From positions 13,284 through 77,283 of the forward strand of contig CAZDDI010000012.1 in NCBI GenBank assembly GCA_964504195.1: 64,000 nucleotides of DNA. The letters are read 5' to 3'. The translations under genes and the position numbers were made by a program. Source of the stretch: an uncultured Anaerolineales bacterium. Lineage in GTDB: Bacteria; Chloroflexota; Anaerolineae; B4-G1; SLSP01. Positions 4,697 to 59,217 of the stretch are shown here, piece after piece (positions within the stretch are counted from its first letter, which is position 1; every line of letters starts with the position of its first letter). Under the pieces are notes generated by a model. The model was given only the letters and a program-made list of their open reading frames with translations. It searched no databases and was not told where the DNA came from.

Positions 4697-6826
4697 TTAT
4701 TTGGGCTGCATCTCTTCAATTTTATGGCGCAGTCGGTCGGCTAACCAGTCTGCCCCTGTCCCGCCACTGGTAATGTAAAGTAATTGTCTTGCTCGAGTCA
4801 TTCCAACGTATAAAAGTTTGCGTTGTTGATCTATTAATTGTTGAGAATCTTCTCCTTGAGCGTCTATTTGTTCGTTTACATGGAATTCTTCTAGGCCGCT
4901 GATAAATACAATTTCGAATTCGAGTCCTTTGATGCTATGAAATGTACAGATTTTGACGGTTGGTTCAGTAATATCCAAGTCACCCTTGATTACTTTACAG
5001 GGTATGCCGTGCTTTTTGAGCTCCTGAGCAACTTTTTCTTGTCCAGCCCAATGCCGTCGAAGTATGGCTATGTCCTTTGGTAGATAGCCTTGTTGGAGTA
5101 AAGATAAAATTTCCCCAGCTATACTGTTACATTCTTGTTCAAGCGATTCAAAAGAGAATAACATGGGTATTGGGCCATGCCGGAATTCAGCATAATCCTT
5201 GTCCGGTTCTACCATGCTATCCCCAGCATCTTCTAATTCTGTGACTAATGTTTTGCTATCTCGGATGACTTCTAATGCTACTTCAATTATCTCTCGAGTG
5301 CTGCGATAGGAATGCCTAAGTATGTAACTATTCTGAGCTGTAATACCTAGCCCTAGTTCTTTCCATGTAAAGTCACGCCGGTATATTTTCTGCGCACCAT
5401 CACCTACGATAAAAACAAAATTCGTTTCTGGTTTCACCATCTTGAAAGCTGTTCTGAACCAGGTCGGTGCAAAATCTTGCGCTTCATCAATTAGCAGGGC
5501 GTGGTATTGTTTGTCTTCAATGATACCTTCCTCTATGGCTTGTAAAACCATTACCGGAATATCAGCCCAGTCACACATTTTGTTATGTGCCATACGCTCT
5601 TGATACTTGCAGAATATACTGTAAATGAGTAAACGTTTTTGTTGTTCGTCACGTCCTAATCCTCTTTCTCTTCCTACACGCTTAATCTTTTGTGGATCAG
5701 GATAGTCACTCCATTGACGATAGTCTATGCGCTCTTTGATCCAGTTAAATTCATCTACCAAGAACTGAGGGTCAAATTCAGTCACATTTACTTCTCTCAG
5801 AATGTTGTTAATAAGACCTATTTGACTGTTTTCGTTTTGTGGACTTCTGAATAACCCGTGACGCGTCAAAATATCTCGGCACCATTTGTGGAAATTAACT
5901 ATTTCTATGTTTCTATTGTTATTGTCATCAATTTGTCTGTATATTTGGCGCAAATATTGACTTAATGATTTGTTGTAAGTTAAAACTAAAATTTTCCAAT
6001 CAGGATTTTGTTCGCAAATAAAGCGCGCGCGAAAAAGCAATATAAGAGTTTTTCCACTTCCTACAACACCTCTTACAAGCTTTGCTTGTGGTTTTCGAGA
6101 CATTTCTTGAGCTTGTGGGGGAAGAAATGTGTCTATTCGAGCTATACCTACCTGATCAGGGGAAAGTGTATGTAATCGTCCTTGCGACCAAGGAACGCGG
6201 GTTTGAGGGTAAAGCATCCATTTCAGCGTATCCAATTGGAGGTGTGTCAAATTGGTATGAAACAGACATGTCTTACGGAAGCGTTCTACAATCTCATTAT
6301 TCAAGTCATCTTTTAGTATGATAAACTCTTCGTTGCACATCTTGTGCAATTCAAGATCAGAAGATAGCCAATCTTTACGGGTAATATTTGGAAATACAAC
6401 AAGAGCGGAAATTGAGAATGCAAGTTTACCTTTATGTTTTCCTTCTTTTCGAAGGAGCTTGTTGTAATTTTCTGGATCAGTATGCCGATAACGGTCAAGT
6501 TCATCTTTCAATGCGCGGCTTTGGTATTCGGCTTGTTGTTCTGGATTTGTTCTTGTTGCTAAACTGCTTCCCATGAAAATCTCAAACTTATCACGGTTAG
6601 CTGCATGAATCTTATCAATACTCCAATCTTTGACTTCTACAATCACCAGACCAATATCACTTCCTAGTGCTACAAAATCTGGACGCGCACTTTTTTTATT
6701 ACCAAATAAAGTGGGTTCGTACCAAACATAATATTCATGTGGTAAATGATGGTAGAGTGCATTGAATACAACGCGTTCACCAGCATTAGCGTTGTCAGGA
6801 ACGTGAGGGTAGTTCATTTGCGCCAT
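4697..6826 (-). CDS. NERD nuclease domain fused to UvrD-like SF1 helicase
   Basis: N-terminal GE..VF, PDFV, IVEVKDW; Walker A GVVGSGKT; DEAQD; TFHSIKGLEF; LYVGMTRA; AT-rich. Confidence 0.88.
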   Translation of the reverse strand: MAQMNYPHVPDNANAGERVVFNALYHHLPHEYYVWYEPTLFGNKKSARPDFVALGSDIGLVIVEVKDWSIDKIHAANRDKFEIFMGSSLATRTNPEQQAEYQSRALKDELDRYRHTDPENYNKLLRKEGKHKGKLAFSISALVVFPNITRKDWLSSDLELHKMCNEEFIILKDDLNNEIVERFRKTCLFHTNLTHLQLDTLKWMLYPQTRVPWSQGRLHTLSPDQVGIARIDTFLPPQAQEMSRKPQAKLVRGVVGSGKTLILLFRARFICEQNPDWKILVLTYNKSLSQYLRQIYRQIDDNNNRNIEIVNFHKWCRDILTRHGLFRSPQNENSQIGLINNILREVNVTEFDPQFLVDEFNWIKERIDYRQWSDYPDPQKIKRVGRERGLGRDEQQKRLLIYSIFCKYQERMAHNKMCDWADIPVMVLQAIEEGIIEDKQYHALLIDEAQDFAPTWFRTAFKMVKPETNFVFIVGDGAQKIYRRDFTWKELGLGITAQNSYILRHSYRSTREIIEVALEVIRDSKTLVTELEDAGDSMVEPDKDYAEFRHGPIPMLFSFESLEQECNSIAGEILSLLQQGYLPKDIAILRRHWAGQEKVAQELKKHGIPCKVIKGDLDITEPTVKICTFHSIKGLEFEIVFISGLEEFHVNEQIDAQGEDSQQLIDQQRKLLYVGMTRARQLLYITSGGTGADWLADRLRHKIEEMQPK

Positions 6827-6862
6827 GATGTTTTCTTCTTTTTTTACCCTTAATTTGTGCGC

Positions 6863-6977
6863 TTACAACTTCAAAACCAAGTGTAAACCAGTCCCTATTT
6901 GCTCTATCAAATTCTCTGGCGACTTACCAATGCGTTCTATCAAGAAGCGTTTATCCACTGTGAGCACTTGTGATACG
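6863..6977 (-). pseudogene. 3' remnant of a PemK/MazF endoribonuclease toxin
   Basis: Manual minus-strand translation TVSQVLTVDKRFLIERIGKSPENLIEQIGTGLHLVLKL* resembles the MazF C-terminus; no start codon or N-terminal half. Confidence 0.7.
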
Positions 6978-7005
6978 GTGTATGGTGATAATAGATTGCA
7001 AAGAT

Positions 7006-7350
7006 CTATTCTTCCAACTCAGCCAGTACTTTTTCCAATGCGATTTTCAGTGATGGTAAATCCTCTGTTGCAGTGAGCCATATTTGTTCAATGTCCACGC
7101 CAAAGTAATCGTGAATTAGCTTATCGCGCATCCCTGCAATATCTTGCCACGGCAGATAGCTATGTGCAGCTCGCAGCTCTTGTGAAAGCCGCTTGGTGGC
7201 TTCGCCCATGATTTCTATTTGTCGAATCACGCCATCTTGGAGCAAGGAATCTTGAATGAAAGCCATTTCGTCTTTGCCGTGTAGATACGCTGTTGCTTTT
7301 GCAACAGCATCAAGAATGTGTCGGAGATAAACCGAGTCGTCACGCTTCAT
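7006..7350 (-). CDS. HepT/DUF86 HEPN ribonuclease toxin
   Basis: IGEA-like motif (MGEA) and [16 protein letters not shown] (R-x4-H-x-Y). Confidence 0.9.
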
Positions 7351-7639
7351 AGATCACCTGCAAATCGCGCGCAATGCCCTCTCGCAGGTAGGGGCTAATA
7401 GCAGCTTCGGTGAGCAAATCCACTTTTCTTCCTAAAGCCTCTGAGAGTTGCCTCTCTAAGGCTACCATCTTTAACAAGCTAATGCGCTTGGAAAATCTGA
7501 CCACAAGATCAATGTCGCTATGTGCATCAGCTTCCCCTCGCGCCACAGAACCAAAGACGCCAATTTGACTCACATGGTTTTGGCGACATAGAGCAATCAG
7601 CGCATTTACATCAAAGGGTAATTTGCTCATCATGTCCAT
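7340..7639 (-). CDS. MntA-type minimal nucleotidyltransferase antitoxin
   Basis: VFGSVARGE...SDIDL...GRKVDL; overlaps the HEPN gene. Confidence 0.9.
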
Positions 7640-7670
7640 TGCTTGTCCTTAGCCATCACCTTCATAAAGT

Positions 7671-8603
7671 CTATTCTGTAACTTTTGCAAAAAGGGTCAA
7701 CTGATTTACTGGTTCTGGTTCAGGTTGCCCATACAAAGCTGCGACAGATTCTTCAAACCGTTTGAACGCATTCTCGTGACGGTGCAGGAACCAGCGTTTA
7801 TGGTTTTCCAGGTATTTGGCTCGAATGTCTGGCTGTCTCAAATCCAACGGGACTCTTTCCACACGCGGGTCAACACTATCGAATCCTGCAAACGGCACCG
7901 ATAACCGCTTGTGGGTGATGGCTACATAATCAGGATTGATCTCTATGCCAATGGCCTTGCGAGCAAGCTGCTGGCAGACGCGCAAAGTCGTACCGCTGCC
8001 GGAAAAAGGATCGAGCACCCAATCTCCTGCATCCGAAGAAGCCAGCACCATTCGCTCAATCAGACCTTCCGGTTTTTGGGTTGGATGATCCTGGCGATTG
8101 CCGTTGCAATAATGCACGTGGGAAAATTCCCAGACATCGCCTGGGTTTGCGCCACGCATATTGTTGCGTTCCCGGTAGTATTTTTGCGGCACGCGCACTG
8201 CATCCAGATTGAACTTGGCGGTTTGCGATTTGGTAAACATCAGAATATCCTCATGGCGAGGAGAGAATCCGCGCGTCTTGCCCATGCCCTGCGTATAGTG
8301 CCAGACTATCCAACTGTTGAAAAACATTTGTAACTCACGGTCGAGAATGTCGTAAAGGTACGAGATAAAGCGAAAGCCCATAAACACATAGAGTGTGCCG
8401 TATGGCTTCAAGAGCCTGTGCGCTTCGCTCAACCATGCCCGCGAAAAGGCAAGGTATTCATCGAAGCCTTTGATATCATGATTGTTTCCATAATCCTTGC
8501 CCAGATTGTAGGGTGGGTCGGCCACGATAAGATCTATAGAGCCGCTTTCAAGTGCTTTCATTTCTTGAAGAGCGTCTCCTGTGATGATTTGAATGTCACT
8601 CAT
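7671..8603 (-). CDS. Site-specific DNA amino-methyltransferase, beta class (orphan)
   Basis: DPPY precedes HPTQKP and DPFSGSGTT. Confidence 0.9.
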   Translation of the reverse strand: MSDIQIITGDALQEMKALESGSIDLIVADPPYNLGKDYGNNHDIKGFDEYLAFSRAWLSEAHRLLKPYGTLYVFMGFRFISYLYDILDRELQMFFNSWIVWHYTQGMGKTRGFSPRHEDILMFTKSQTAKFNLDAVRVPQKYYRERNNMRGANPGDVWEFSHVHYCNGNRQDHPTQKPEGLIERMVLASSDAGDWVLDPFSGSGTTLRVCQQLARKAIGIEINPDYVAITHKRLSVPFAGFDSVDPRVERVPLDLRQPDIRAKYLENHKRWFLHRHENAFKRFEESVAALYGQPEPEPVNQLTLFAKVTE

Positions 8604-36182: not shown

Positions 36183-36452
36183 TTACCATACGCCACGATC
36201 CTCAAGCACGATTTCTGATAGGGGTTTGCCGAAAGGGCTACCTAAAAGATCGACCAAACGCTGACGTGCTTCTACCGAGACTGGGTCAGGGGGGATTGGC
36301 TCATCAGACTTAGATTGGGTTAGCCGGGCAGCCGCCAGGATTTGCCCAATGCGCGCGGTTTGGGTTTTCGGCATGTTTTTAACAATTATCTGGATATGCA
36401 CTTGTTGATGCTCGCGCAATTGCAGTGGTCTCAACGGATATAACGTGCCTTG
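36183..36452 (-). pseudogene. 5'-truncated AF2212/DUF104-type antitoxin
   Basis: The frame reads QGTLYPLRPLQLREHQQVHIQI...GKPLSEIVLEDRG right up to the upstream gene's stop; the usual MxxIxAIYE start is missing. Confidence 0.55.
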
Positions 36453-44146: not shown

Positions 44147-44491
44147 ACACAAAGCTCCTTTCAAAATGTGATTGAGCGAAAAGACGAGAAAGCGAAGGGA
44201 GATGAAGGTTGCGCCGTTCGCAGTAGCACAGGATTTATCCTGTATCTCCGCTATGGCCGGTCTCTGACCGTGCCCGCGCATGTGCTTGATTTCAACTTGC
44301 TCGGCGTGGATTGCCAAATCCACGCCTTTGGCCTACCAAGTATCTGGTAAACCGCTAGATTTGGCAATCCAGCGGGAGCAAGTGGCAGGATTATTTTCTT
44401 GGAATCCCCTTACGCATTACGTTTTACGCAGTACGAGCACTATGCGGGTCAGGCTTTCATTTGCGCATGACCTGCCATGCGCGGATGCGGA

Positions 44492-46682: not shown

Positions 46683-46750
46683 AGCCACGAATTTCACGAA
46701 TGGACACGGAAGTCTGAAATGAATTCGCAAAATTTATGTAATTCGTGGCA
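46683..46750. repeat. CACGAAT-type palindromic repeat
   Basis: gccacgaatttcacgaat ... aattcgtggc; related copies at 52590, 52722 and 59152. Confidence 0.8.
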
Positions 46751-50169: not shown

Positions 50170-50664
50170 TCACCTAAGCCCGGTCTCGATCTCCAGGAGG
50201 GTTTGATCGAGTGCCTCCAGAACTTCTGGGGGTAAGGAGACCTCAACCGGTAGCGATACTTGCAGATGGTAGCTGGTGGAGATCGGTATGGTCATCTGTA
50301 CCGGGATTTCCAGGATAAGTTGTAGGGGAATGTTGGCGCGAATGGGCACGGTGACATTTTGCGGCCCTAGCAGGGGCACCGCAATCGTGGTGTTGACGAT
50401 GGTATCGAGCGCATAGGTGGTATCTATCGGTACGGAGAAGCTCTGGTTGATGGGGATCTCGACCGCGAGTGGCAACACCTGATCCACTTGTACCATGGTA
50501 GTGAAAGGTTCCATCGTGAAGTCGCTCAACGCCGCGCGCGCGGATACAACTGTATCGAATGCAGCCGCTTTGAAGCTCAGCAATTGCCAGACCACGAAGG
50601 CGTTAATTGTCAATGACAGTAGCAGTCCCAGAGCCAAAATCACGAGAGCGATACGTGTTTTCAT
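50170..50664 (-). CDS. Hypothetical membrane-anchored protein with a beta-rich I/P/V segment
   Basis: N-terminal TM, repeated VPID/IPI motifs; RBS GAGGAG. Confidence 0.65.
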   Translation of the reverse strand: MKTRIALVILALGLLLSLTINAFVVWQLLSFKAAAFDTVVSARAALSDFTMEPFTTMVQVDQVLPLAVEIPINQSFSVPIDTTYALDTIVNTTIAVPLLGPQNVTVPIRANIPLQLILEIPVQMTIPISTSYHLQVSLPVEVSLPPEVLEALDQTLLEIETGLR

Positions 50665-51085
50665 GGTAATTCTCCTCATTAAAATGGCAAATCTTAAATC
50701 AAAACAGACTCAGTAGATTACGAAATACTCCAAGGGGATTCCCAGCTCCCCGTCCGGGGCTGGATTTGGCGATCCAGCCTGAGCAATCTGTGATCTACTG
50801 AGGCTGAGTAGTTACAATCCGCGCTCTACTGAGACTTGAATTTTCGGGGTGCTTTTCGAGCTAACGAGGGTATTATAGAGGGTTTTGGACATAGGGCAAT
50901 CGCAGCGGGGAGCGTCATTGCTTCCAAAAGGCACTTTCAGGCCCAAATTTTATTCGCAGCAGAATTTCCCCGCTTGCCTGCTCGCGTGGACTTGTCTCCC
51001 GTGGGCGCATGGATGCGCGTCCCTGAAACACAAAACGTGAGGCCACCTGCATGCCTCACGTTTCGCTATGACTTCCGACCACGTT

Positions 51086-51481
51086 TCAATCCAGTGCATC
51101 ATAAGGCGGCGGCTCGGCCTCGGCGACCTTGACCAGCGCCTGTTCAAAGCGCGCGCGATTGCCTGTGTGGGCACGTTCCTGGACGTAATCCTCTTTTGCA
51201 ATTTGCGTGAACGCATCCGGTCTTTGTTCGGCGATGCGCAGCAAAGCCAGCGCGGGGCCGCTCGGTTTGCGCCGCCCCTGCTCCCAATCCTGCACTGTGC
51301 GCACGCTGACGCCCATCAGCGCGGCAAAGGCCGCTTGCGATAGTTGCAGGTTGGCGCGAATGACTTGCGGCGGCGCTGGCTCGCGCAGCGTGTGTGTCCG
51401 CAGAACCTTCTCGCCGGCCTTATGTGCTTTGATTTCCCGAATGCCTTCGAGGATTTCTTGTGCAATATCACGTTCAGTCAT
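51086..51481 (-). CDS. HigA/NadS-type HTH antitoxin with an extra C-terminal tail
   Basis: IR..LQLSQ..FA..MGVSVRTVQDWEQGRR.PSG.A. Confidence 0.85.
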   Translation of the reverse strand: MTERDIAQEILEGIREIKAHKAGEKVLRTHTLREPAPPQVIRANLQLSQAAFAALMGVSVRTVQDWEQGRRKPSGPALALLRIAEQRPDAFTQIAKEDYVQERAHTGNRARFEQALVKVAEAEPPPYDALD

Positions 51482-51785
51482 GGTCAATCTCCCTCGCTAT
51501 TTGACGCAATACATGGGCGGGGATAGTGGCTGTTTCATTTTTGCTGTAGATGGTCAACAACCAGATCTCATCCTCCGAGCGCTTGAAGTAGTAAATCACT
51601 CGCACCCCGCCGCGTTTACCGCTGCCCGCCATTCTCCAACGCAGTTTACGCACCCCGCCTGAACCTGGCACGACGTTACCGGCGGCTGGATATTGGAGCA
51701 GGAAATTCTGCAATCCGGCATATTCGTCTTCCGATAGATACGCATAGACATATTTGGTGAAGGCTGAGGCTTCGATGAATTCCAT
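51474..51785 (-). CDS. RelE/HigB2-family toxin
   Basis: MEFIE...F, G..VPGSGGVRKLRW...GKRGG.RVIYY, LLTIYSK. Confidence 0.9.
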   Translation of the reverse strand: MEFIEASAFTKYVYAYLSEDEYAGLQNFLLQYPAAGNVVPGSGGVRKLRWRMAGSGKRGGVRVIYYFKRSEDEIWLLTIYSKNETATIPAHVLRQIAREIDHD

Positions 51786-51791
51786 ATCTCT

Positions 51792-51820
51792 ATTATACGG
51801 CTAAGCCGTATACATGGCAA
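51792..51820 (-). promoter_or_regulatory. Promoter and palindromic operator of the higBA-like operon
   Basis: TTGCCA-17 bp-TATAAT; palindrome TATACGGCT-A-AGCCGTATA at 51794-51812; ATG 6 nt after the -10. Confidence 0.75.
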
Positions 51821-51839
51821 GTGTGTGCCGAATATCCCG

Positions 51840-51950
51840 CGCCGCCGCATGGATGCACGCCCCCAACCGTAACCGCCCCGCGCCCGCCCACGTGGATTCG
51901 TGGCCCCATGCGTGGACGGCCCCCCGCCCGCGCATGGATGTGCGCCCCAA
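51840..51950. repeat. Cluster of CGCATGGATGCGCGCCCC-type REP-like repeats
   Basis: Four degenerate copies; related copies at ~51005, ~52675 and ~52805. Confidence 0.7.
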
Positions 51951-52033
51951 AGCACAGCCCGCCGTATCGCGGGGAAGACGGCGGGCTGTGGTGATGACTG
52001 AACACGCTGCGTTTAAGGCGCGGAGGTTATTTC

Positions 52034-52258
52034 TCACTCACCCAAAAACTCCTCGACGGTCAAACCGATGTCTTTGGCAATTTGCCGCAGCAGAATGGGC
52101 GAAATATCGCGTCCGCCGTGGAAAGGCACGGTTGTGCAGCGCCCGTCTGGATGCCGGTATTGAATGTGCGAGCCGCGTTGACGCACAACCTCGAACCCAA
52201 GTCGCTCCAAAATCCGCATCACTGCGCGGGGTTTCAAGACCGGATATTTCTTCCCCAT
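52034..52258 (-). CDS. hicA: HicA-family mRNA interferase toxin
   Basis: LERLGF..VRQRGSH..Y.HPDG..TTVP.H, L.QI. Confidence 0.9.
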   Translation of the reverse strand: MGKKYPVLKPRAVMRILERLGFEVVRQRGSHIQYRHPDGRCTTVPFHGGRDISPILLRQIAKDIGLTVEEFLGE

Positions 52259-52259
52259 C

Positions 52260-52469
52260 TCACCCCACCATAATCGTTTGCGTCCCGACAAACTCCGTTT
52301 CTAAGACCGGCTGCCCATCCTCTAGCAACATCTCGATAACCTCGTGGAGGTTCTGATAAAGTTCATCCAGCGTCTCGCCTTGCGAGTGCGCCCCCGCGAA
52401 GTTCGGCACATAACCAACGTACAGGCCAGTATCGGAACATTTTTCGACAACAGCAGTAAAGAACATCAT
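52260..52469 (-). CDS. hicB: HicB-family antitoxin (short)
   Basis: YVGYVP...GAHSQGETLDEL..NL.E. Confidence 0.9.
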   Translation of the reverse strand: MMFFTAVVEKCSDTGLYVGYVPNFAGAHSQGETLDELYQNLHEVIEMLLEDGQPVLETEFVGTQTIMVG

Positions 52470-52558
52470 AGTGGCACCTCCTACAAGGACTCTCTGCTCT
52501 TTACACTCATTATAGCATAACCTGCCGCGCCACGCGCGCCGATTTCAGCCTTCCGCCC

Positions 52559-52846
52559 CCAGCCGTGACCGGCCCAGCACATTCTCTTAGCCACGAATTT
52601 CACGAATTAACACGAAGGCCATTGACTCAATTCGTAAAATTCGTGCAATTCGTGGCAAAATCTCCCCCCGCCAGCGCATGGATGCGCGCCTCCAGCCGTG
52701 ACCGGCCCGACCCGCCCTCTTAGCCACGAATTTCACGAATTGACACGAAGGCCATTGTCTCAATTCGTAAAATTCGTGTAATTCGTGGCAAAATCTCCCG
52801 CCAGCGCGTGGATGCGCGCCCCCAGCCGTGACCGGCCCGACCTGCC
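52559..52846. repeat. Tandem ~130-bp composite repeat (2.2 copies)
   Basis: Units start at about 52559, 52692 and 52821 with ccagccgtgaccggccc; each full unit has a CACGAAT palindrome and a REP-like motif. Confidence 0.85.
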
Positions 52847-52861
52847 CCTGTCGGAAAGAGT

Positions 52862-52917
52862 TCAAGCAAAGGCACCAAGCTGCAAAGATTTCTTGGCGAC
52901 TTGGTGCCTTTGCTTGA
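52862..52917. repeat. 18-bp inverted repeat hairpin downstream of AIPR
   Basis: tcaagcaaaggcaccaag ... cttggtgcctttgcttga. Confidence 0.75.
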
Positions 52918-52965
52918 GATGGCCGCCTTTTGTGATACGGTTGCGTAGACTTGTCCTCCACAAAT

Positions 52966-54642
52966 TTACCACAATTGATCTATATATGCCTCAATACAAC
53001 TACATTTGTTATTATTTTTAAATATGTTTGCCAAATAAGATTCTGAATATTTCTCATTAACTGCTTTTATAGCTAGTTCAACTGCTTTAGCAGTAATGTT
53101 AGGAATGGCTTTCAATATTTCATTGATATCCAAATTAGGATCATCCAGGCCTGAAAGATCTAAGTGCCTAAACACTTGCCGAGCCAAAAAACGATTTCCA
53201 TGAACAGGCAACATTGCATCACGTCCGTGATAACTACCTTGCTGATTCTTTAGTTCAATATCCACTGCACGATGCATTTGAACTAATCGCCATAGTCTAG
53301 TGCTAGAAACATTAGGATTAAACAAAGCTCTATATGGAGCTTTCGTAACATCTTCCCACAACACACCAATGCCTTTTTTCGCTTGCATAGCATAAGAGAG
53401 CTCAGAATGAGCACTTGCAAGTACCACAGTAGCTTCTGTTAAATCAAATCCTTTACTTGGTTCATCAATACTATATCCAGATTTATAAACATATGTGATT
53501 CCCTCAAGTTGTAATTCAGTTCTCAAACGTTCTTGTTGTGTATCAAGTGAAACAAAGTCTCGCTTCTCTATGCGATTTTGAGTATTTGTAGCCCGTGTTA
53601 CACGAACTGAAAAATCAGTTGGACACCCTTCGAGTGAGATAAAGCGAACCATTACAGATGCTCTTGCAACACTAGTAGGATCCTTATCATTAGCTTTAGC
53701 GATTGCTCCTACCGTTTGAGCTCCATTTACAATACTCACATCCGTACATTCAAATACCCCACTATCTCGTGACGGACCACCTAAAGGTTTCTTCTTTATA
53801 GCGCTACACAATGCTGTTATGCCATTGTTAAAATACCAGAAATTTTCCGGCTCCTTAGATAATGTTTGAGTAATATCTTGGTTAATGTTACTATCAGCAA
53901 GGAAAGAACGTATATTTGGAGCAAATAGTTTTGAATGATAGGTGTACCAATTTGCTATCTCACTTGCAGAAATACGACCATAATATGCAGGAAAGGGCTC
54001 TTCCATATATCCCCAATCACGCAATACAATTTCAAAGTTTATCGGAGCCCCAAGAGCTCCAGTTGCAATAATATGATGCAATTGACTTTGTTTAAATGTG
54101 CGCAATTCCATTACATCAGCAGAATCATTCATGTCATACAGAAAGTCGTTTAGATCTCGTAATATTTCTTCACTTAGATTTGATTGTCCTGTATAAGCTA
54201 ACACTAGAATTATTCTAGTATTTGCGTCAGCTAAAGCTGTTTCGATCTCTTTCTGATGTTTGTTTACTTTTTTATTGAAACGATCTAGTTTTATGGTGAT
54301 TAAATCCTTAACTCCCTGAATAAATTTCTGCGCATCGCCTCTTTCTATGCTACCTGCGCCATCGTGACGCCATTTTGATTGAACCAAGTATAAGGTTTTC
54401 TTAGACTCATGAAAGAAGATCGCGTCTAGCCCATTATCATGAAACCCATCAGTAACACTAGCAGCAGCTTGTATTGGCTCCACGTTGGCATCGATATGAA
54501 TTACGAATGCCGCAAGAGAACGCGAAAGAAAAATGGATTCATAATCTTTAGCTGATTTTTCTGTGCAATCGGTCATATCTATTTGTTCATGAAACAACGA
54601 AGTAAGATGGGCCTTAATTTGATTAACATGAATAACGCTCAT
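52966..54642 (-). CDS. AIPR family (abortive infection phage resistance) protein
   Basis: D.GLDA, QSKW, NIR.FL, FWYFNNGIT, IVNGAQT, TNTQN; strongly AT-rich. Confidence 0.9.
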   Translation of the reverse strand: MSVIHVNQIKAHLTSLFHEQIDMTDCTEKSAKDYESIFLSRSLAAFVIHIDANVEPIQAAASVTDGFHDNGLDAIFFHESKKTLYLVQSKWRHDGAGSIERGDAQKFIQGVKDLITIKLDRFNKKVNKHQKEIETALADANTRIILVLAYTGQSNLSEEILRDLNDFLYDMNDSADVMELRTFKQSQLHHIIATGALGAPINFEIVLRDWGYMEEPFPAYYGRISASEIANWYTYHSKLFAPNIRSFLADSNINQDITQTLSKEPENFWYFNNGITALCSAIKKKPLGGPSRDSGVFECTDVSIVNGAQTVGAIAKANDKDPTSVARASVMVRFISLEGCPTDFSVRVTRATNTQNRIEKRDFVSLDTQQERLRTELQLEGITYVYKSGYSIDEPSKGFDLTEATVVLASAHSELSYAMQAKKGIGVLWEDVTKAPYRALFNPNVSSTRLWRLVQMHRAVDIELKNQQGSYHGRDAMLPVHGNRFLARQVFRHLDLSGLDDPNLDINEILKAIPNITAKAVELAIKAVNEKYSESYLANIFKNNNKCSCIEAYIDQLW

Positions 54643-54770
54643 AATTATCCTTTCGTGATGTAGAGATTAGTATATAAAATAGCAACTTATTAGCAATAGA
54701 CGAAAAATAACTTTCCCAAATTACCCCCGAAAACCTGGGGAAATGGTCTAAAATGGGGGAACTTATTTTT

Positions 54771-54905
54771 AACTTTAGGTTCCGCTAAGTTGAAAATGCC
54801 ACTGCATATGGTTTTCGTGCTTATCAAAACACTAGATATGGCACATCAAATTGTACAAGAACATCGAAAACAGCCTAAAAACTCATTTTAGCGGAACCTA
54901 AAGTT
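54771..54905. mobile_element. MITE-like 135-bp element with perfect 18-bp terminal inverted repeats
   Basis: aactttaggttccgctaa (54771-54788) / ttagcggaacctaaagtt (54888-54905); no ORF inside. Confidence 0.6.
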
Positions 54906-55000
54906 TTAACCATTCCTAAACAAGTATATAAAATACTTGCTCTTGGAATTCAGGAAGCAGACTTGTCGCCTGCTCCCTCTCTCCCATCCCCTATAACAAA

Positions 55001-57211
55001 TTATAGCACACCTCTCCCCTTCAACACCTTCACCATCGCATTGACCACATGGATGCCCTTCGTCCCGCGCCCGAACGTCGCATCCAGGCCCGTCTCGGCG
55101 GCCATCTCGCGGTTCACCTGCGTCCCGCCGGCAATCAGGATGATCCTATCGCGGATGCCGCGCTCCACGCACAAGTCCGCCAGCCGCCGCATCTGCGCGC
55201 GATGCACGTCGTTGTGGCTGATGATGGTGGAAATCAAAATCGCGTGCGCGCCGGTCTCGATAGCGGCGTCAATCAACTTGCTCACCGGCACGGAGGTGCC
55301 CAGGTAATGGTACTTCACGCCGTACTTCTCGATGCCGCCGTGCTTGATGTCGAGGATTTCGCGCAAACCCACGCTATGCTCGTCCTCGCCCACCGTCCCG
55401 GACACCACCGTGAGGCCCACCTGCTTCACCGCCGCGCGCAGCTCCTCTTCCGGCAGGATCACCTCTTTCTCCGGGATTTTGAGCGTGGTCACGTCCACAT
55501 CGAAGCCCACCTTGCCCTTCACCTCCACAAAACAGCCCTCGGCGGGGTGCATCACTTGGAGGTTGACCACCTGCGGGTCGGCGAGGCCCATCCGCTTCGC
55601 CATCTCCACGCCGTAGGCGGCGGCGAAATCCTCCGCCAGCGGCACGAAGAATTGCAGCAGCACAGTCCCATCGCCCGCCCATTCCGCTTCCGGCTTCACC
55701 AGCGTGCCCTTGCGGTAGGGATAGGTCGCCTCCAGCCGCTTGTCCGCGCTGTCCTCTGGATCGAGTTCATCAATGTAGACGATTTTTTCCGGCTTGCAGA
55801 GCGTGCAGCCGCCGATGAGGTCGCAGGCATGGGCCACGCCCGCCGGGAGATGGTTCTGGCCGAAGTGGTCGCACACGGGCGCGAGATAGTCCGGGTCGCG
55901 GGCCACGATGCTATCCGCTGCCACGCCGCCCTTCCCGTTGCGGGCGATGCCGTCGCCGTTACGCTCCGGGTACTTGCCCGAATCCACAAAAAAGCCCTTT
56001 TCCACCGCCGCAAAATACCCGCCGATTTCGAGGATTTCTTCCAGGAAGGCTACAGCGCGCACTTTGAGATCGCGCACCATCTCACCCAGCGGCCCCTCGT
56101 GGTTGATGCTCAACAGCTCCTTGATGCCATCGAGCGCGGCCCAGGTCTGCTTGACGGTCTGCACGCCGCGAATGTTGTTGTAGTGCCAGGGCACGTTGCG
56201 CCCCTCGTCGGGCGTGATGGTGCTCTGGATGTCCGCGCTGGTGAGCATGGAAATCAGCGTATCCACCGTGTGCGTGCGGATGGCCTCCTCGATGTCGGCC
56301 TCGATGTACCGCGTGTTCTGCTGCGCGCGCATCTTGTACTCGGAGAACACATCGCGCAGGGCCACCGCGTAGGGCAGGTCGTACCAGAGTTTGGGCGCGG
56401 GCGGCGCGTCCGGCGGCACGGTGGAGAGGCCGATGAGTTCCTTATCCATCCCTACGGCTACGGAGAAGGCGCAGTTGATGCCATGCTGCACCATCAGTTC
56501 GGGCATCACCAGCCAGCCGGCCTTGGCGGTGGCGTTGGCGTTGTGCGCGCCGTCAATCTGGAAGATGCGCGCCCCGGCCATCACTCGCTTGGCTTCGGCG
56601 GCGTCCACAAACGAGCGGTACATATTCACGTTGCGGTACAGCACGTTGTACTGTGGATCCTGGTGCGCGCCGTTGATGCCCTCCTCGGCGAAGAGCACGG
56701 CCACTTCCGGCCCGGCCACGCCGGAGACGTAACTGTGAAAGTTGATAGGGCGGCCCACCTCGTCCTCGATCATATCGCACGCCTTGCGGCTGGCGCGAAT
56801 CTGCTTGCGCGTAATCGGCACGCCGCCCACGCCCTCCGGCGTCCCTTCGAGCAGCCCGTCAATGTGACTCTGGCCCGTCGTGCGGATGACCATCAGATGG
56901 TCGGCACCGTGCCAGGCCGCCATGCGCATCCGGCGGATATCATCCTCGAAGCGCCCGGAGGCAATCTCGGTGGTGACAACGCACGCAGGCTGCGGGTCAA
57001 TATGGTCGAAATACTTGGAGGCGGGCAGGCCGATGCTATTCTTGAGCGGCGTGGACATATCGCGGAAATGGAACGGCCCCATCTCCACGCCCTCTGCGGG
57101 CACCTCCCGCCACGTCCACCCCTTCCGCTGCGGGTGATAATCTTCCAGGTCGGTCAAAATTTCTTCGATGTCTAACTTTTGCTTGGGATCAAGTTGTTTG
57201 GTCATAGTCAT
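55001..57211 (-). CDS. oraE: D-ornithine 4,5-aminomutase beta subunit (PLP/B12)
   Basis: EIASGRFEDDIRRMRMAAWHGADH, HQDPQYN, GEDEHSVG.REI.DIKHGG. Confidence 0.95.
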   Translation of the reverse strand: MTMTKQLDPKQKLDIEEILTDLEDYHPQRKGWTWREVPAEGVEMGPFHFRDMSTPLKNSIGLPASKYFDHIDPQPACVVTTEIASGRFEDDIRRMRMAAWHGADHLMVIRTTGQSHIDGLLEGTPEGVGGVPITRKQIRASRKACDMIEDEVGRPINFHSYVSGVAGPEVAVLFAEEGINGAHQDPQYNVLYRNVNMYRSFVDAAEAKRVMAGARIFQIDGAHNANATAKAGWLVMPELMVQHGINCAFSVAVGMDKELIGLSTVPPDAPPAPKLWYDLPYAVALRDVFSEYKMRAQQNTRYIEADIEEAIRTHTVDTLISMLTSADIQSTITPDEGRNVPWHYNNIRGVQTVKQTWAALDGIKELLSINHEGPLGEMVRDLKVRAVAFLEEILEIGGYFAAVEKGFFVDSGKYPERNGDGIARNGKGGVAADSIVARDPDYLAPVCDHFGQNHLPAGVAHACDLIGGCTLCKPEKIVYIDELDPEDSADKRLEATYPYRKGTLVKPEAEWAGDGTVLLQFFVPLAEDFAAAYGVEMAKRMGLADPQVVNLQVMHPAEGCFVEVKGKVGFDVDVTTLKIPEKEVILPEEELRAAVKQVGLTVVSGTVGEDEHSVGLREILDIKHGGIEKYGVKYHYLGTSVPVSKLIDAAIETGAHAILISTIISHNDVHRAQMRRLADLCVERGIRDRIILIAGGTQVNREMAAETGLDATFGRGTKGIHVVNAMVKVLKGRGVL

Positions 57212-57294
57212 AATACCTCTATTGGTGAAAGGGTGCGTGAAACATGATGCGTGAAACGTGAAGATTTCTCTGATCACGTTTCACGTTTCACGCA

Positions 57295-59130: not shown

Positions 59131-59217
59131 AATTTTACTCCTCGGAAATGCAGCCACGAATTACACGAATTAACACTAATTTTTTAACAAATTCGTAAAA
59201 TTCGTGCAAATTCGTGG

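Follow-up and report, generated by a model that had tools for sequence, protein, structure and literature searches.

Toxin-antitoxin and abortive-infection genes stacked beside oraE in an uncultured Anaerolineales bacterium: a possible case of repeated insertion at a defence hotspot

How do several small defence genes come to lie in a row on a chromosome, between short repeats and with no integrase gene among them? The question is raised by a 64,000-nucleotide stretch of DNA (the window) from an uncultured Anaerolineales bacterium. In it, two toxin-antitoxin (TA) pairs, higBA and hicAB, and an AIPR/AbiU-like abortive-infection gene, all assigned with Pfam, occupy the minus strand between oraE, a gene of ornithine fermentation, and a gene for a 169-aa protein. 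The window corresponds to C12:13284-77283 of a 4.9-Mb assembly (137 contigs, 57% GC) labelled G000; coordinates are those of the window unless prefixed by a genome (G), contig (C) or excerpted-locus (L) label. The original prediction had read the interval as an integron-like array of cassettes stacked at hairpin sites, perhaps by a HUH/RAYT-type enzyme (RAYT, tyrosine transposase associated with repetitive extragenic palindromic, or REP, sequences). The analysis presented here points elsewhere: the locus looks like ordinary repeated insertion at a hotspot and not like a new integron-like machine.

The sequence common to the unit boundaries is a short GC-rich motif. GCRYGGATGYRCGYC was matched exactly five times in the window, always on the plus strand (at 51007, 51847, 51932, 52676 and 52806) and packed within 1.8 kb. 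With one mismatch allowed, nine matches were found against a shuffle mean of 0.72, and 0 of 100 shuffles reached nine. Together with one decayed copy (F), these exact copies bear out the predicted recurrence of one motif at the unit boundaries (copies A to F, Table 1). The tail ccagccgtgaccgg, which was expected to accompany the motif often, follows four of the six copies (B, F, D and E) and is absent after A and C.

Genome-wide mapping gave six to seven motif copies and not the hundreds that the predicted label "REP-like" would imply. The exact pattern matched ten times in the genome: five times at the locus, once at C1:259749 and four times elsewhere. In our reading, only the C1 match shares flanks with the locus copies, the other four falling in coding-looking sequence. 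At one mismatch or fewer to the 17-mer, seven matches were obtained, four at the locus and one each at C1, C6:107703 and C58. The motif is found almost solely at cargo junctions. The motif-plus-tail pattern occurred in none of 60 relatives. Searched as a 23-nt degenerate form, the motif matched 95 stretches in species-representative genomes, with a single match in each of the 80 listed, from unrelated GC-rich taxa; these matches are treated as chance. Because it is absent from the 60 relatives and found only as single scattered matches across the species collection, the motif, at six to seven copies in 4.9 Mb, is best described as a local repeat and not a REP.

The architecture of the individual copies provides further evidence. 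Read on the plus strand, copies D and E have on their left a box-like part, overlapping a palindrome end, and continue with the motif and the tail CCAGCCGTGACCGGCCC. In copies A and C, and in that on C1, box and motif are present, and all similarity ends 0-3 nt past GCGCGYCCC, at the edge from which higA, hicA and the C1 cargo begin with their 3' ends (in higA and hicA, with the start of their terminators). Copies B and F carry motif and tail, and lie on the promoter side of higBA and hicAB, respectively. Copies A and B therefore enclose higBA, and C and F enclose hicAB, so that each pair is bracketed by same-strand direct repeats; three unrelated cargos (higBA, hicAB and the C1 pair) start within a few nucleotides of one motif edge. 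The AIPR unit has the motif on one side only and begins after the tail of copy E. This distribution of half-sites and complete sites matches what insertion into a complete site, with duplication of its core, would predict.

Each unit also appears, from its sequence signals, to be a separate transcription unit with its own promoter and hairpin terminator. The predicted -10 element of each TA unit was recovered, for higB as TATAAT by the promoter scan, with a palindrome tatacggcttagccgtata read in the promoter spacer, and for hicB as TGcTATAAT at 52517-52509 by reading, the scan being silent there. The AIPR gene has a promoter-like site scoring 9/12 in the same scan. As predicted, all three units share the strand of the host operons, both oraE and the 169-aa gene being on the minus strand. 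Their composition differs: GC content is 35-40% in the AIPR island (~52860-54950), 52-60% in the TA pairs and 61-66% in the flanks. What survives of the predicted integron-like stacking is this set of self-contained units, with each TA pair bracketed by a near-unique same-strand repeat; the proposed enzyme class is not supported.

A second motif locus, at C1:257.7-262.5 kb, shows the order recombinase element, box and motif, a HEPN and GmrSD_N gene pair, a miniature inverted-repeat transposable element (MITE), and a 670-nt copy of the oraE 3' end. The recombinase (330 aa; PF00589, 2e-35) is a tyrosine recombinase that scores best against XerC and XerA, with every model below its cut-off (178.7 bits vs 335). 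It lies ~0.9 kb from the only other clear motif copy in the genome and is framed by 3 + 4 + 5 copies of a 19-22-nt repeat, ATTTCACAGTTTTTGAGACT, in inverted arrays resembling element ends; box and motif follow directly after the last of these repeats. The cargo, at 35-42% GC, consists of a HEPN (RiboL-PSP) and a GmrSD_N gene (PADLOC NsnA, 8.9e-64). In the 670-nt copy, the terminator and 3' end of oraE are joined to an aminotransferase fragment (54951-55620 vs L005 11785-12454). It differs from oraE at 16 positions in 54951-55055, at none in the 310 nt of 55056-55365 and at 16 in 55366-55620. The zero-mismatch stretch is a gene-conversion tract, so the oraE and C1 loci belong to one genome. The oraE terminator marks the exact end of both low-GC cargos; that of C1 starts after the motif and the AIPR island after the tail of copy E. 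The predicted absence of an integrase holds for contig C12, which has none of the 14 PF00589 matches of the genome nor its single PF00239 match. It does not hold for the genome, which encodes this Xer-like recombinase near the C1 motif and an integron integrase on C26.

The C1 recombinase element spans ~2 kb (C1:257742-259733, equal to L005 7743-9734); a nested 394-nt derivative and a decayed second copy at C42:25660-26180 were also seen. A comparison of the recombinase with a metagenome collection returned seven loci at 26-36% identity and was of no use. An inverted repeat upstream of the C1 GmrSD_N gene was considered as an attachment (att) or attC site and discarded, being the MITE of an insertion sequence (IS) at C5:38103-39707.

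The oraE junction was then compared among relatives. Among 40 other genomes of the family, 4 were found to carry the gene, as were 5 among 144 of the order, and OraE is 90-94% identical at the amino acid level in four relatives. In the four relatives compared (G512 left out), no DNA similarity to the window extends past the oraE stop codon. Of the five oraE relatives, one has an empty site and four have differing DNA, in two of them with restriction-modification (R-M) or TA genes. The empty state is that of G034, in which 72 nt separate oraE from a MutL-like gene (PF13941) that is followed by racemase genes. In G448, of the same genus as G034, an R-M system of a D12 methylase and a SacI-like endonuclease is inserted. 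The TA case is G018, with an AF2212-like antitoxin and a PIN toxin, followed by a second small module. G512 has 0.75 kb with a small open reading frame, and G005 has other DNA with no MutL gene within 3.6 kb. The features of a defence hotspot are therefore present: a constant oraE flank, varied cargo (G448, G018, G512, G005, G000 and the C1 copy in G000) and an empty state (G034).

The second module of G018 (~650 nt, no integrase), which by eye looks like a phd/doc remnant, lies between the two copies of a 50-nt direct repeat (45/50 identical; L133, from G018:C380, 1637-1686 and 2335-2384), and this repeat is the 5' end of the MutL gene, covering its first ~45 coding nucleotides. G448 likewise retains a direct repeat (28/35 identical). 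Direct-repeat-flanked, integrase-less modules therefore recur at the oraE junction. An integrase-bearing element at this junction was found in none of the five relatives. In G000 the MutL-like and racemase genes lie at C22:57396-59032, and that contig ends ~310 nt upstream of the MutL gene. As these genes follow oraE in relatives and are on another contig here, the ornithine operon is split or rearranged in G000.

The explanation that we put first, though tentatively, is that modules without an integrase were inserted one after another at a hotspot in Campbell fashion, the motif being the sequence duplicated at the crossover. A variable hotspot would lie just downstream of the oraE terminator, where self-contained TA and defence units would accumulate one by one. 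Most likely, the TA pairs would have entered as small circular, integrase-less modules through Campbell-type crossover, which may have been site-specific, by an enzyme acting in trans, or may have proceeded by recombination through short homology. Their target would have been a pre-existing short array with units made of the palindrome and the GC-rich site. Each entry would duplicate ~20-35 nt around GCGCATGGATGCGCGCC, hence the same-strand copies that now flank higBA and hicAB. D and E would be unoccupied sites, their number raised by the tandem duplication of 133 nt. Abutting the oraE terminator, the low-GC AIPR unit would be the latest arrival; as it has no second motif copy on the oraE side, it is probably a separate event, for example an exchange through conserved flanks. 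Serial insertion is favoured because three cargos share a motif edge, the motif is nearly confined to cargo junctions, and direct-repeat modules recur in relatives. The anatomy of the locus, the scarcity of its motif, the C1 locus and the hotspot behaviour among relatives are observed; we infer the circular intermediates, the crossover point and the enzyme, since neither an excision product nor an empty allele nor a working recombinase was seen. As to the enzyme, the C1 Xer-like recombinase is a candidate by a single association.

Several observations weigh against serial insertion. No empty or excised form was seen in the low-depth contigs of four runs, and the genomes compared include none of the genus of G000. 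[quoted passage not shown] That 9-mer was considered as an att core, as the zero-mismatch tract starts just after it, and was rejected because a single 9-mer is within chance. The AIPR and C1 cargos have the motif on one side only, and the link between recombinase and motif on C1 is one observation. The half-site pattern is itself not clean, because the left flanks of B and F also weakly resemble the palindrome terminus. The one-mismatch copy at C6:107703 is intergenic, upstream of a gene for an exported-looking protein, with no TA genes adjoining. Homologous TA pairs at nine loci of other genomes lack motif, tail and box, apart from one spurious box-like match. In G254, five 115-nt tandem units of palindrome and AT-rich spacer hold no inserted genes. 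As the box comes from a class-wide repeat family and palindrome arrays can be gene-free, the repeats could have spread independently of the genes.

This last point leads to the main rival explanation, which is possible but on the unlikely side. It takes the motif, its box and the CACGAATT palindrome for parts of repeat families characteristic of the lineage, making up a mosaic intergenic repeat like the bacterial interspersed mosaic elements (BIMEs) that was amplified locally, by tandem duplication, slippage and gene conversion, where the region was variable already. The TA and defence genes would have arrived by unrelated routes, through flank-homology exchange or illegitimate recombination, and the motif would lie at their boundaries because it fills every spacer. 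The wider repeat landscape fits this. Over its 37 nt, the box segment 51891-51927 shares 95% identity with a 50-nt tandem-repeat unit of G180, from another family, and CCCTATTCGTGGACGGCCCA forms the arms of MITEs in G000, so that the box belongs to the same repeat world. The 310-nt oraE/C1 tract, which shows gene conversion to be active, and the weakly palindrome-like left flanks of B and F suit such a repeat too. Against it, random arrival would not be expected to give higBA, hicAB and the C1 pair a shared motif edge; the absence of the motif from 60 relatives, with only single scattered matches in the species collection, argues that it is not lineage-wide; and the direct-repeat modules in G018 and G448 recur at this very junction. 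In G180 (C147 4607-5161, L118) the surrounding sequence is a GC-rich intergenic array of 48-nt (2.7 copies), 27-nt (7 copies) and 50-nt (3.6 copies) units in mirror arrangement, in which the 50-nt unit contains the window box at 92-95% identity.

The palindrome CACGAATT also speaks for the mosaic-repeat explanation, being class-wide, and the local 133-nt duplication is an array of the kind seen in G254. Each 133-nt unit consists of the tail, the palindrome and the motif. The two tandem units of ~130 bp named in the original prediction were confirmed, with a period of 133 nt in Tandem Repeats Finder (TRF), whereas their content, taken to be "empty slots", is a dispersed palindrome with 96 seed matches in 72 clusters in G000, many in a MITE form of ~125 nt with the ends taccgtaca...tgtacggta. 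The prediction had named repeats equally frequent at core-gene junctions as speaking against it, and on this part the palindrome does so, lying at 46686-46747 with oadB and a GNAT gene on either side, and at 59155-59206 with ortB and ortA. When 50960-52960 was compared with 400 other genomes of the class, matches were found in 141 of 401 genomes including G000, the palindrome accounting for most of those listed (G435, among the 141, carries an unpublished flag and underlies no further claim). Across many genomes of the class the family is 78-90% conserved; it takes the form of MITEs, of single copies immediately upstream of genes and of tandem arrays (L120, G254:C102 2746-3269). Its outward ends read TTGCCA, like a -35 box, and it has no Rfam match.

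A bolder version of insertion is improbable. Here the GC-rich site (box, GCGCATGGATGCGCGCC and tail) would be the attachment site of a dedicated capture system of Anaerolineae-type bacteria, served in trans by the C1 Xer-like recombinase (C1:257.7-259.7 kb). If this were true, the recombinase, carried on an element of its own with inverted-repeat ends, would bring very small TA and defence modules, each with its promoter, into arrays of sites and remove them again, and the system would be a functional integron analogue built from unrelated parts.

A cluster of integron-type attC sites without an integrase of its own, served in trans by the integron integrase on C26, is very unlikely. Such an integrase is encoded in the genome (C26:1647-2591, 314 aa; TIGR02249, 432.7 bits vs a cut-off of 265), the units are cassette-like and share one orientation, and TA cassettes are common in chromosomal integrons. 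An attC site, however, is an imperfect palindrome of ~57-141 nt with RYYYAAC and GTTRRRY ends, one per cassette. By reading and folding, the motif copies here are 17-50 nt long with a stem of 5-6 bp, they lack RYYYAAC and GTTRRRY boxes, and two to three of them lie at each junction between neighbours. Moreover, the integrase gene is on another contig, beside groEL, and the TA units have their own promoters and terminators. A crude attC scan found no match anywhere; it also missed a control, the attC-like palindrome beside intI, and is given no weight. To the left of intI (C26:1-2600, L143) are a MITE, a GC-rich palindromic element of ~260 nt and an alpha/beta-hydrolase gene, before the contig ends in an IS fragment. 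The palindromic element (875-1119, with ends GCCTAAC.../...GTTCAGC) has a 96-98% identical copy at C11:39492-39770, and Rfam gave no match over C26:700-1700.

Equally doubtful is a dif-like arrangement, in which Xer-type recombinases shuffle modules flanked by Xer sites, as for the pdif modules of Acinetobacter plasmids. The C1 recombinase does score best against XerC and XerA, though below the cut-offs, and pdif modules include TA pairs according to the available portion of PMC6449649. In the same text, pdif sites are 28 bp long, built as 11-6-11 and inversely oriented, whereas the copies at the present locus are direct and their palindrome is 6-2-6.

The predicted "hairpin sites" were examined by folding. 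The own stem of the motif is 5-6 bp (GCGCAT-GG-ATGCGC). Among six copies, those of the window and C1 taken together, the z-scores were +0.49, +1.31, -2.31, -1.11, -2.27 and -1.69, so that only two of six fall below -2. The lowest z-score is that of copy C (fold -16.7 kcal/mol, z -2.31). In both C and C1 (z -2.31 and -1.69, respectively) the left motif half, CCGCGCATGG, is an inverted repeat of the box CCATGCGTGG, with which it folds.

Stacking by a HUH/RAYT single-strand transposase, as originally predicted, is hardly credible: a RAYT-like gene exists (C26:8864-9517, 217 aa; NF047646, 78.1 bits vs a cut-off of 80; the sole Y1_Tnp match in the genome) and a small hairpin is present in the motif, but the gene has another REP, GCAGGATGAATCCTGCGCTAC, on its flanks (at C26 8552, 8581 and 9535, often in inverted pairs), no motif copy lies in the 3.3 kb around it (L004), the motif has only six to seven copies, and four of the six folded copies are not better than shuffles at z < -2. 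The REP has 38 matches in the genome at three or fewer mismatches, of which the only one on C12 is at 44223-44243 and none is in 50990-54905.

The assembly of the locus is supported by independent data. A 1436-nt contig from run X3 covers 51835-53270, including motifs B, C, F, D and E, hicAB and the 3' end of the AIPR gene, with 0 differences. The read evidence consists of Logan contigs at a depth of ~2-8 from runs X3, X4, X5 and X7, and no joint was seen inside 50700-55000 in these low-depth contigs. Run X5 has no cover over 53015-54218, which at such depth proves nothing. One X3 contig departs from the window at 50705, inside a dispersed MITE, and this is probably a repeat-induced path. An Rfam search of 50600-55100 returned two sub-threshold chance matches and nothing else.

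Table 1. Features of the oraE junction in G000 (window coordinates).
Feature	Position	Strand	Evidence and remarks
169-aa flanking gene	50170-50679	-	flank
Dispersed MITE-like repeat, ends actcagtagat...atctactgag	50705-50802	.	left edge of variable region
Motif copy A: box-like CGCGTGGAC, spacer, GCGCATGGATGCGCGTCCC; no tail	50975-51023	+	similarity to other copies stops at 51023
Hairpin 3' of higA, aaacgtgaggc...gcctcacgttt, likely terminator	51033-51063	-	read from sequence; consensus scan silent
HigA/NadS-type helix-turn-helix antitoxin, 133 aa	51086-51487	-	Pfam HTH_3 1.5e-08 (HTH_3/MqsA-like); NCBIfam NadS 49.1 bits, cut-off 60
HigB/RelE-type toxin, 103 aa	51474-51785	-	Pfam RelE PF06296 23.8 bits, below 27-bit cut-off; end overlaps antitoxin start
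higBA promoter TTGCCA-17-TATAAT	51792-51820	-	promoter scan 11/12
Motif copy B CCGCATGGATGCACGCC and tail cccccaaccgtaaccg	51835-51888	+	pattern search and copy alignment
Box CACGTGGATTCGTGGCCCCATGCGTGGACGG and motif copy C; no tail	51890-51948	+	box and left motif half form a 10-bp inverted repeat; 51904-51947 93% identical to C1:259721-259764
Hairpin 3' of hicA, cacagcccgccgt...acggcgggctgtg	51955-51990	-	read from sequence; part scored terminator-like
HicA toxin	52034-52291	-	Pfam HicA_toxin 5.5e-22; reading frame drawn from TTG start
HicB/UPF0150 antitoxin, 69 aa	52260-52469	-	Pfam UPF0150 8e-08, HicB_lk_antitox 9.3e-07
Motif copy F, decayed core, intact tail	52530-52575	+	TGGATG lost, ~14 nt inserted
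133-nt tandem duplication	52554-52847	+	TRF period 133, 2.2 copies, 90% matches; repeat search 91%
CACGAATT palindrome, ~73 nt, copies 1 and 2	52587-52659; 52720-52792	.	fold -21.3 kcal/mol, z -7.41
Motif copy D and tail, "complete" site	52664-52717	+	pattern search and copy alignment
Motif copy E and tail, "complete" site	52794-52847	+	abuts low-GC AIPR island
Hairpin 3' of AIPR gene, 27-bp arms	52862-52917	-	repeat search, 89% complementary
AIPR/AbiU-like abortive-infection gene	52966-54642	-	Pfam AIPR 5.7e-38; PADLOC AbiU 8.5e-31; low-GC island
~75-nt segment	54699-54772	+	common with upstream region of low-GC GmrSD_N gene, C10:375-455 (L123)
135-nt inverted-repeat element	54771-54905	.	19-bp terminal stems; 75% identical copy C4:95671-95814 (L135)
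oraE terminator hairpin and 3' untranslated region	54944-55000	-	AIPR island begins directly after; C1-copy homology begins here
OraE, D-ornithine 4,5-aminomutase E subunit	55001-57277	-	Pfam; conserved hotspot flank

Some features of the individual units complete the description (Table 1). HigB is 66-75% identical at the amino acid level to its partners in homologous pairs of three other genomes. HigA has ~35 additional C-terminal residues, four of four homologues ending near residue 97-98, and the DNA similarity of higBA to other genomes stops near 51193. The 3' end of higA (51086-51195) is therefore of other origin. The true start of HicA is probably an ATG near 52258. The upstream region of the AIPR gene (54655-54960) was matched in 0 of 400 genomes of the class. 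Its ~75-nt segment is common to two low-GC single-gene defence islands, in differing orientation relative to the neighbouring gene; the other island, on C10, carries a 606-aa GmrSD_N gene 6 nt upstream of hypF. The C4 copy of the 135-nt element is in another low-GC island, adjoining an MntA-like nucleotidyltransferase gene. The window copy was considered as an attC site for its AAC...GTT bounds and rejected, since the C4 copy has TAC. The MITE-like repeat at the left edge recurs on other contigs ~10 times, in full or in part, at 81-91% identity, and its terminal repeats are also found on MITEs at C29, C41 and C51.

Truncated and chimeric TA genes at 6863, 36183 and 51086 had been proposed as scars of the stacking process, which was not confirmed. 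No motif lies at 6863 or 36183, the HepT/MntA pair at 7006-7639 is intact, 36183-36434 has no Pfam match, and HigA, at 51086, is not truncated. A second defence cluster (4697-8603) holds a NERD-UvrD helicase gene (709 aa), the intact HepT/MntA pair and an N6/N4 DNA methylase gene, with no motif or CACGAATT palindrome adjoining.

Known systems offer parallels of varying closeness. The nearest is the accretion of cis-mobilizable elements (CIMEs) and of IMEs (integrative and mobilizable elements), reviewed for the ICESt1 type (PMC5704250, in the excerpts available). There, as at the oraE junction, small units stand in a row beside a conserved gene between same-strand repeats of ~20-50 nt, many lack a recombinase, and older units lie farther away. 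A precedent in the Chloroflexota is given by the ssrA islands of Dehalococcoides, which are tandem, are bounded by 20-bp direct repeats and in 15 cases lack an integration module, as far as the accessible part of PMC3146451 describes them. Here, in contrast, the repeat is not the target gene end (it shares only the 9-mer with the oraE 3' end, although G018 does show such a copy), the units are only 0.7-2.1 kb, no integrase-bearing sister element occupies the site in the five relatives, and the sites are arrayed with a dispersed palindrome. The core defence hotspots cDHS1/2 of Pseudomonas aeruginosa (PMC10250203) and hotspot #37 of Escherichia coli, alongside hotspots without an identifiable mode of mobilisation (PMC10121019), are similar, in the sections of both papers at hand, in their constant core flank, varying defence or TA cargo and lack of a mobility gene; the present hotspot is far smaller, and its modules are repeat-bounded in a way that hints at mechanism.

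The other systems are more distant. As in pdif modules (PMC6449649, available portion), the units are small and discrete, some are TA pairs, the sites are short and of recombinase type, and there is no recombinase of their own; unlike the inversely oriented pdif sites of plasmids, the repeats here are direct, of another shape and chromosomal. Integron arrays and attC clusters share the small stacked units in one orientation, a recurring site, the lack of an integrase in the array and an IntI elsewhere in the genome, and differ in their attC architecture, in having a single site per junction, in the lack of own promoters and terminators and in lying beside intI/attI. The short GC-rich palindromic intergenic mosaics near terminators recall REP/BIME sequences with their RAYTs, but the motif has six to seven copies against tens to hundreds, and the real REP and RAYT of this genome are of different sequence and in another place.

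How very small defence and TA units without mobility genes move into chromosomal hotspots is an open point in the field, as put in the available text of PMC10121019. The oraE junction of this bacterium is a compact case of it: its modules measure 0.7-2.1 kb, repeats bound their junctions, the site is empty in one relative, and the junction has a second copy next to a recombinase. If the modest reading of serial insertion is true, the locus would be a further instance of hotspot accretion, from a phylum that has been little studied.

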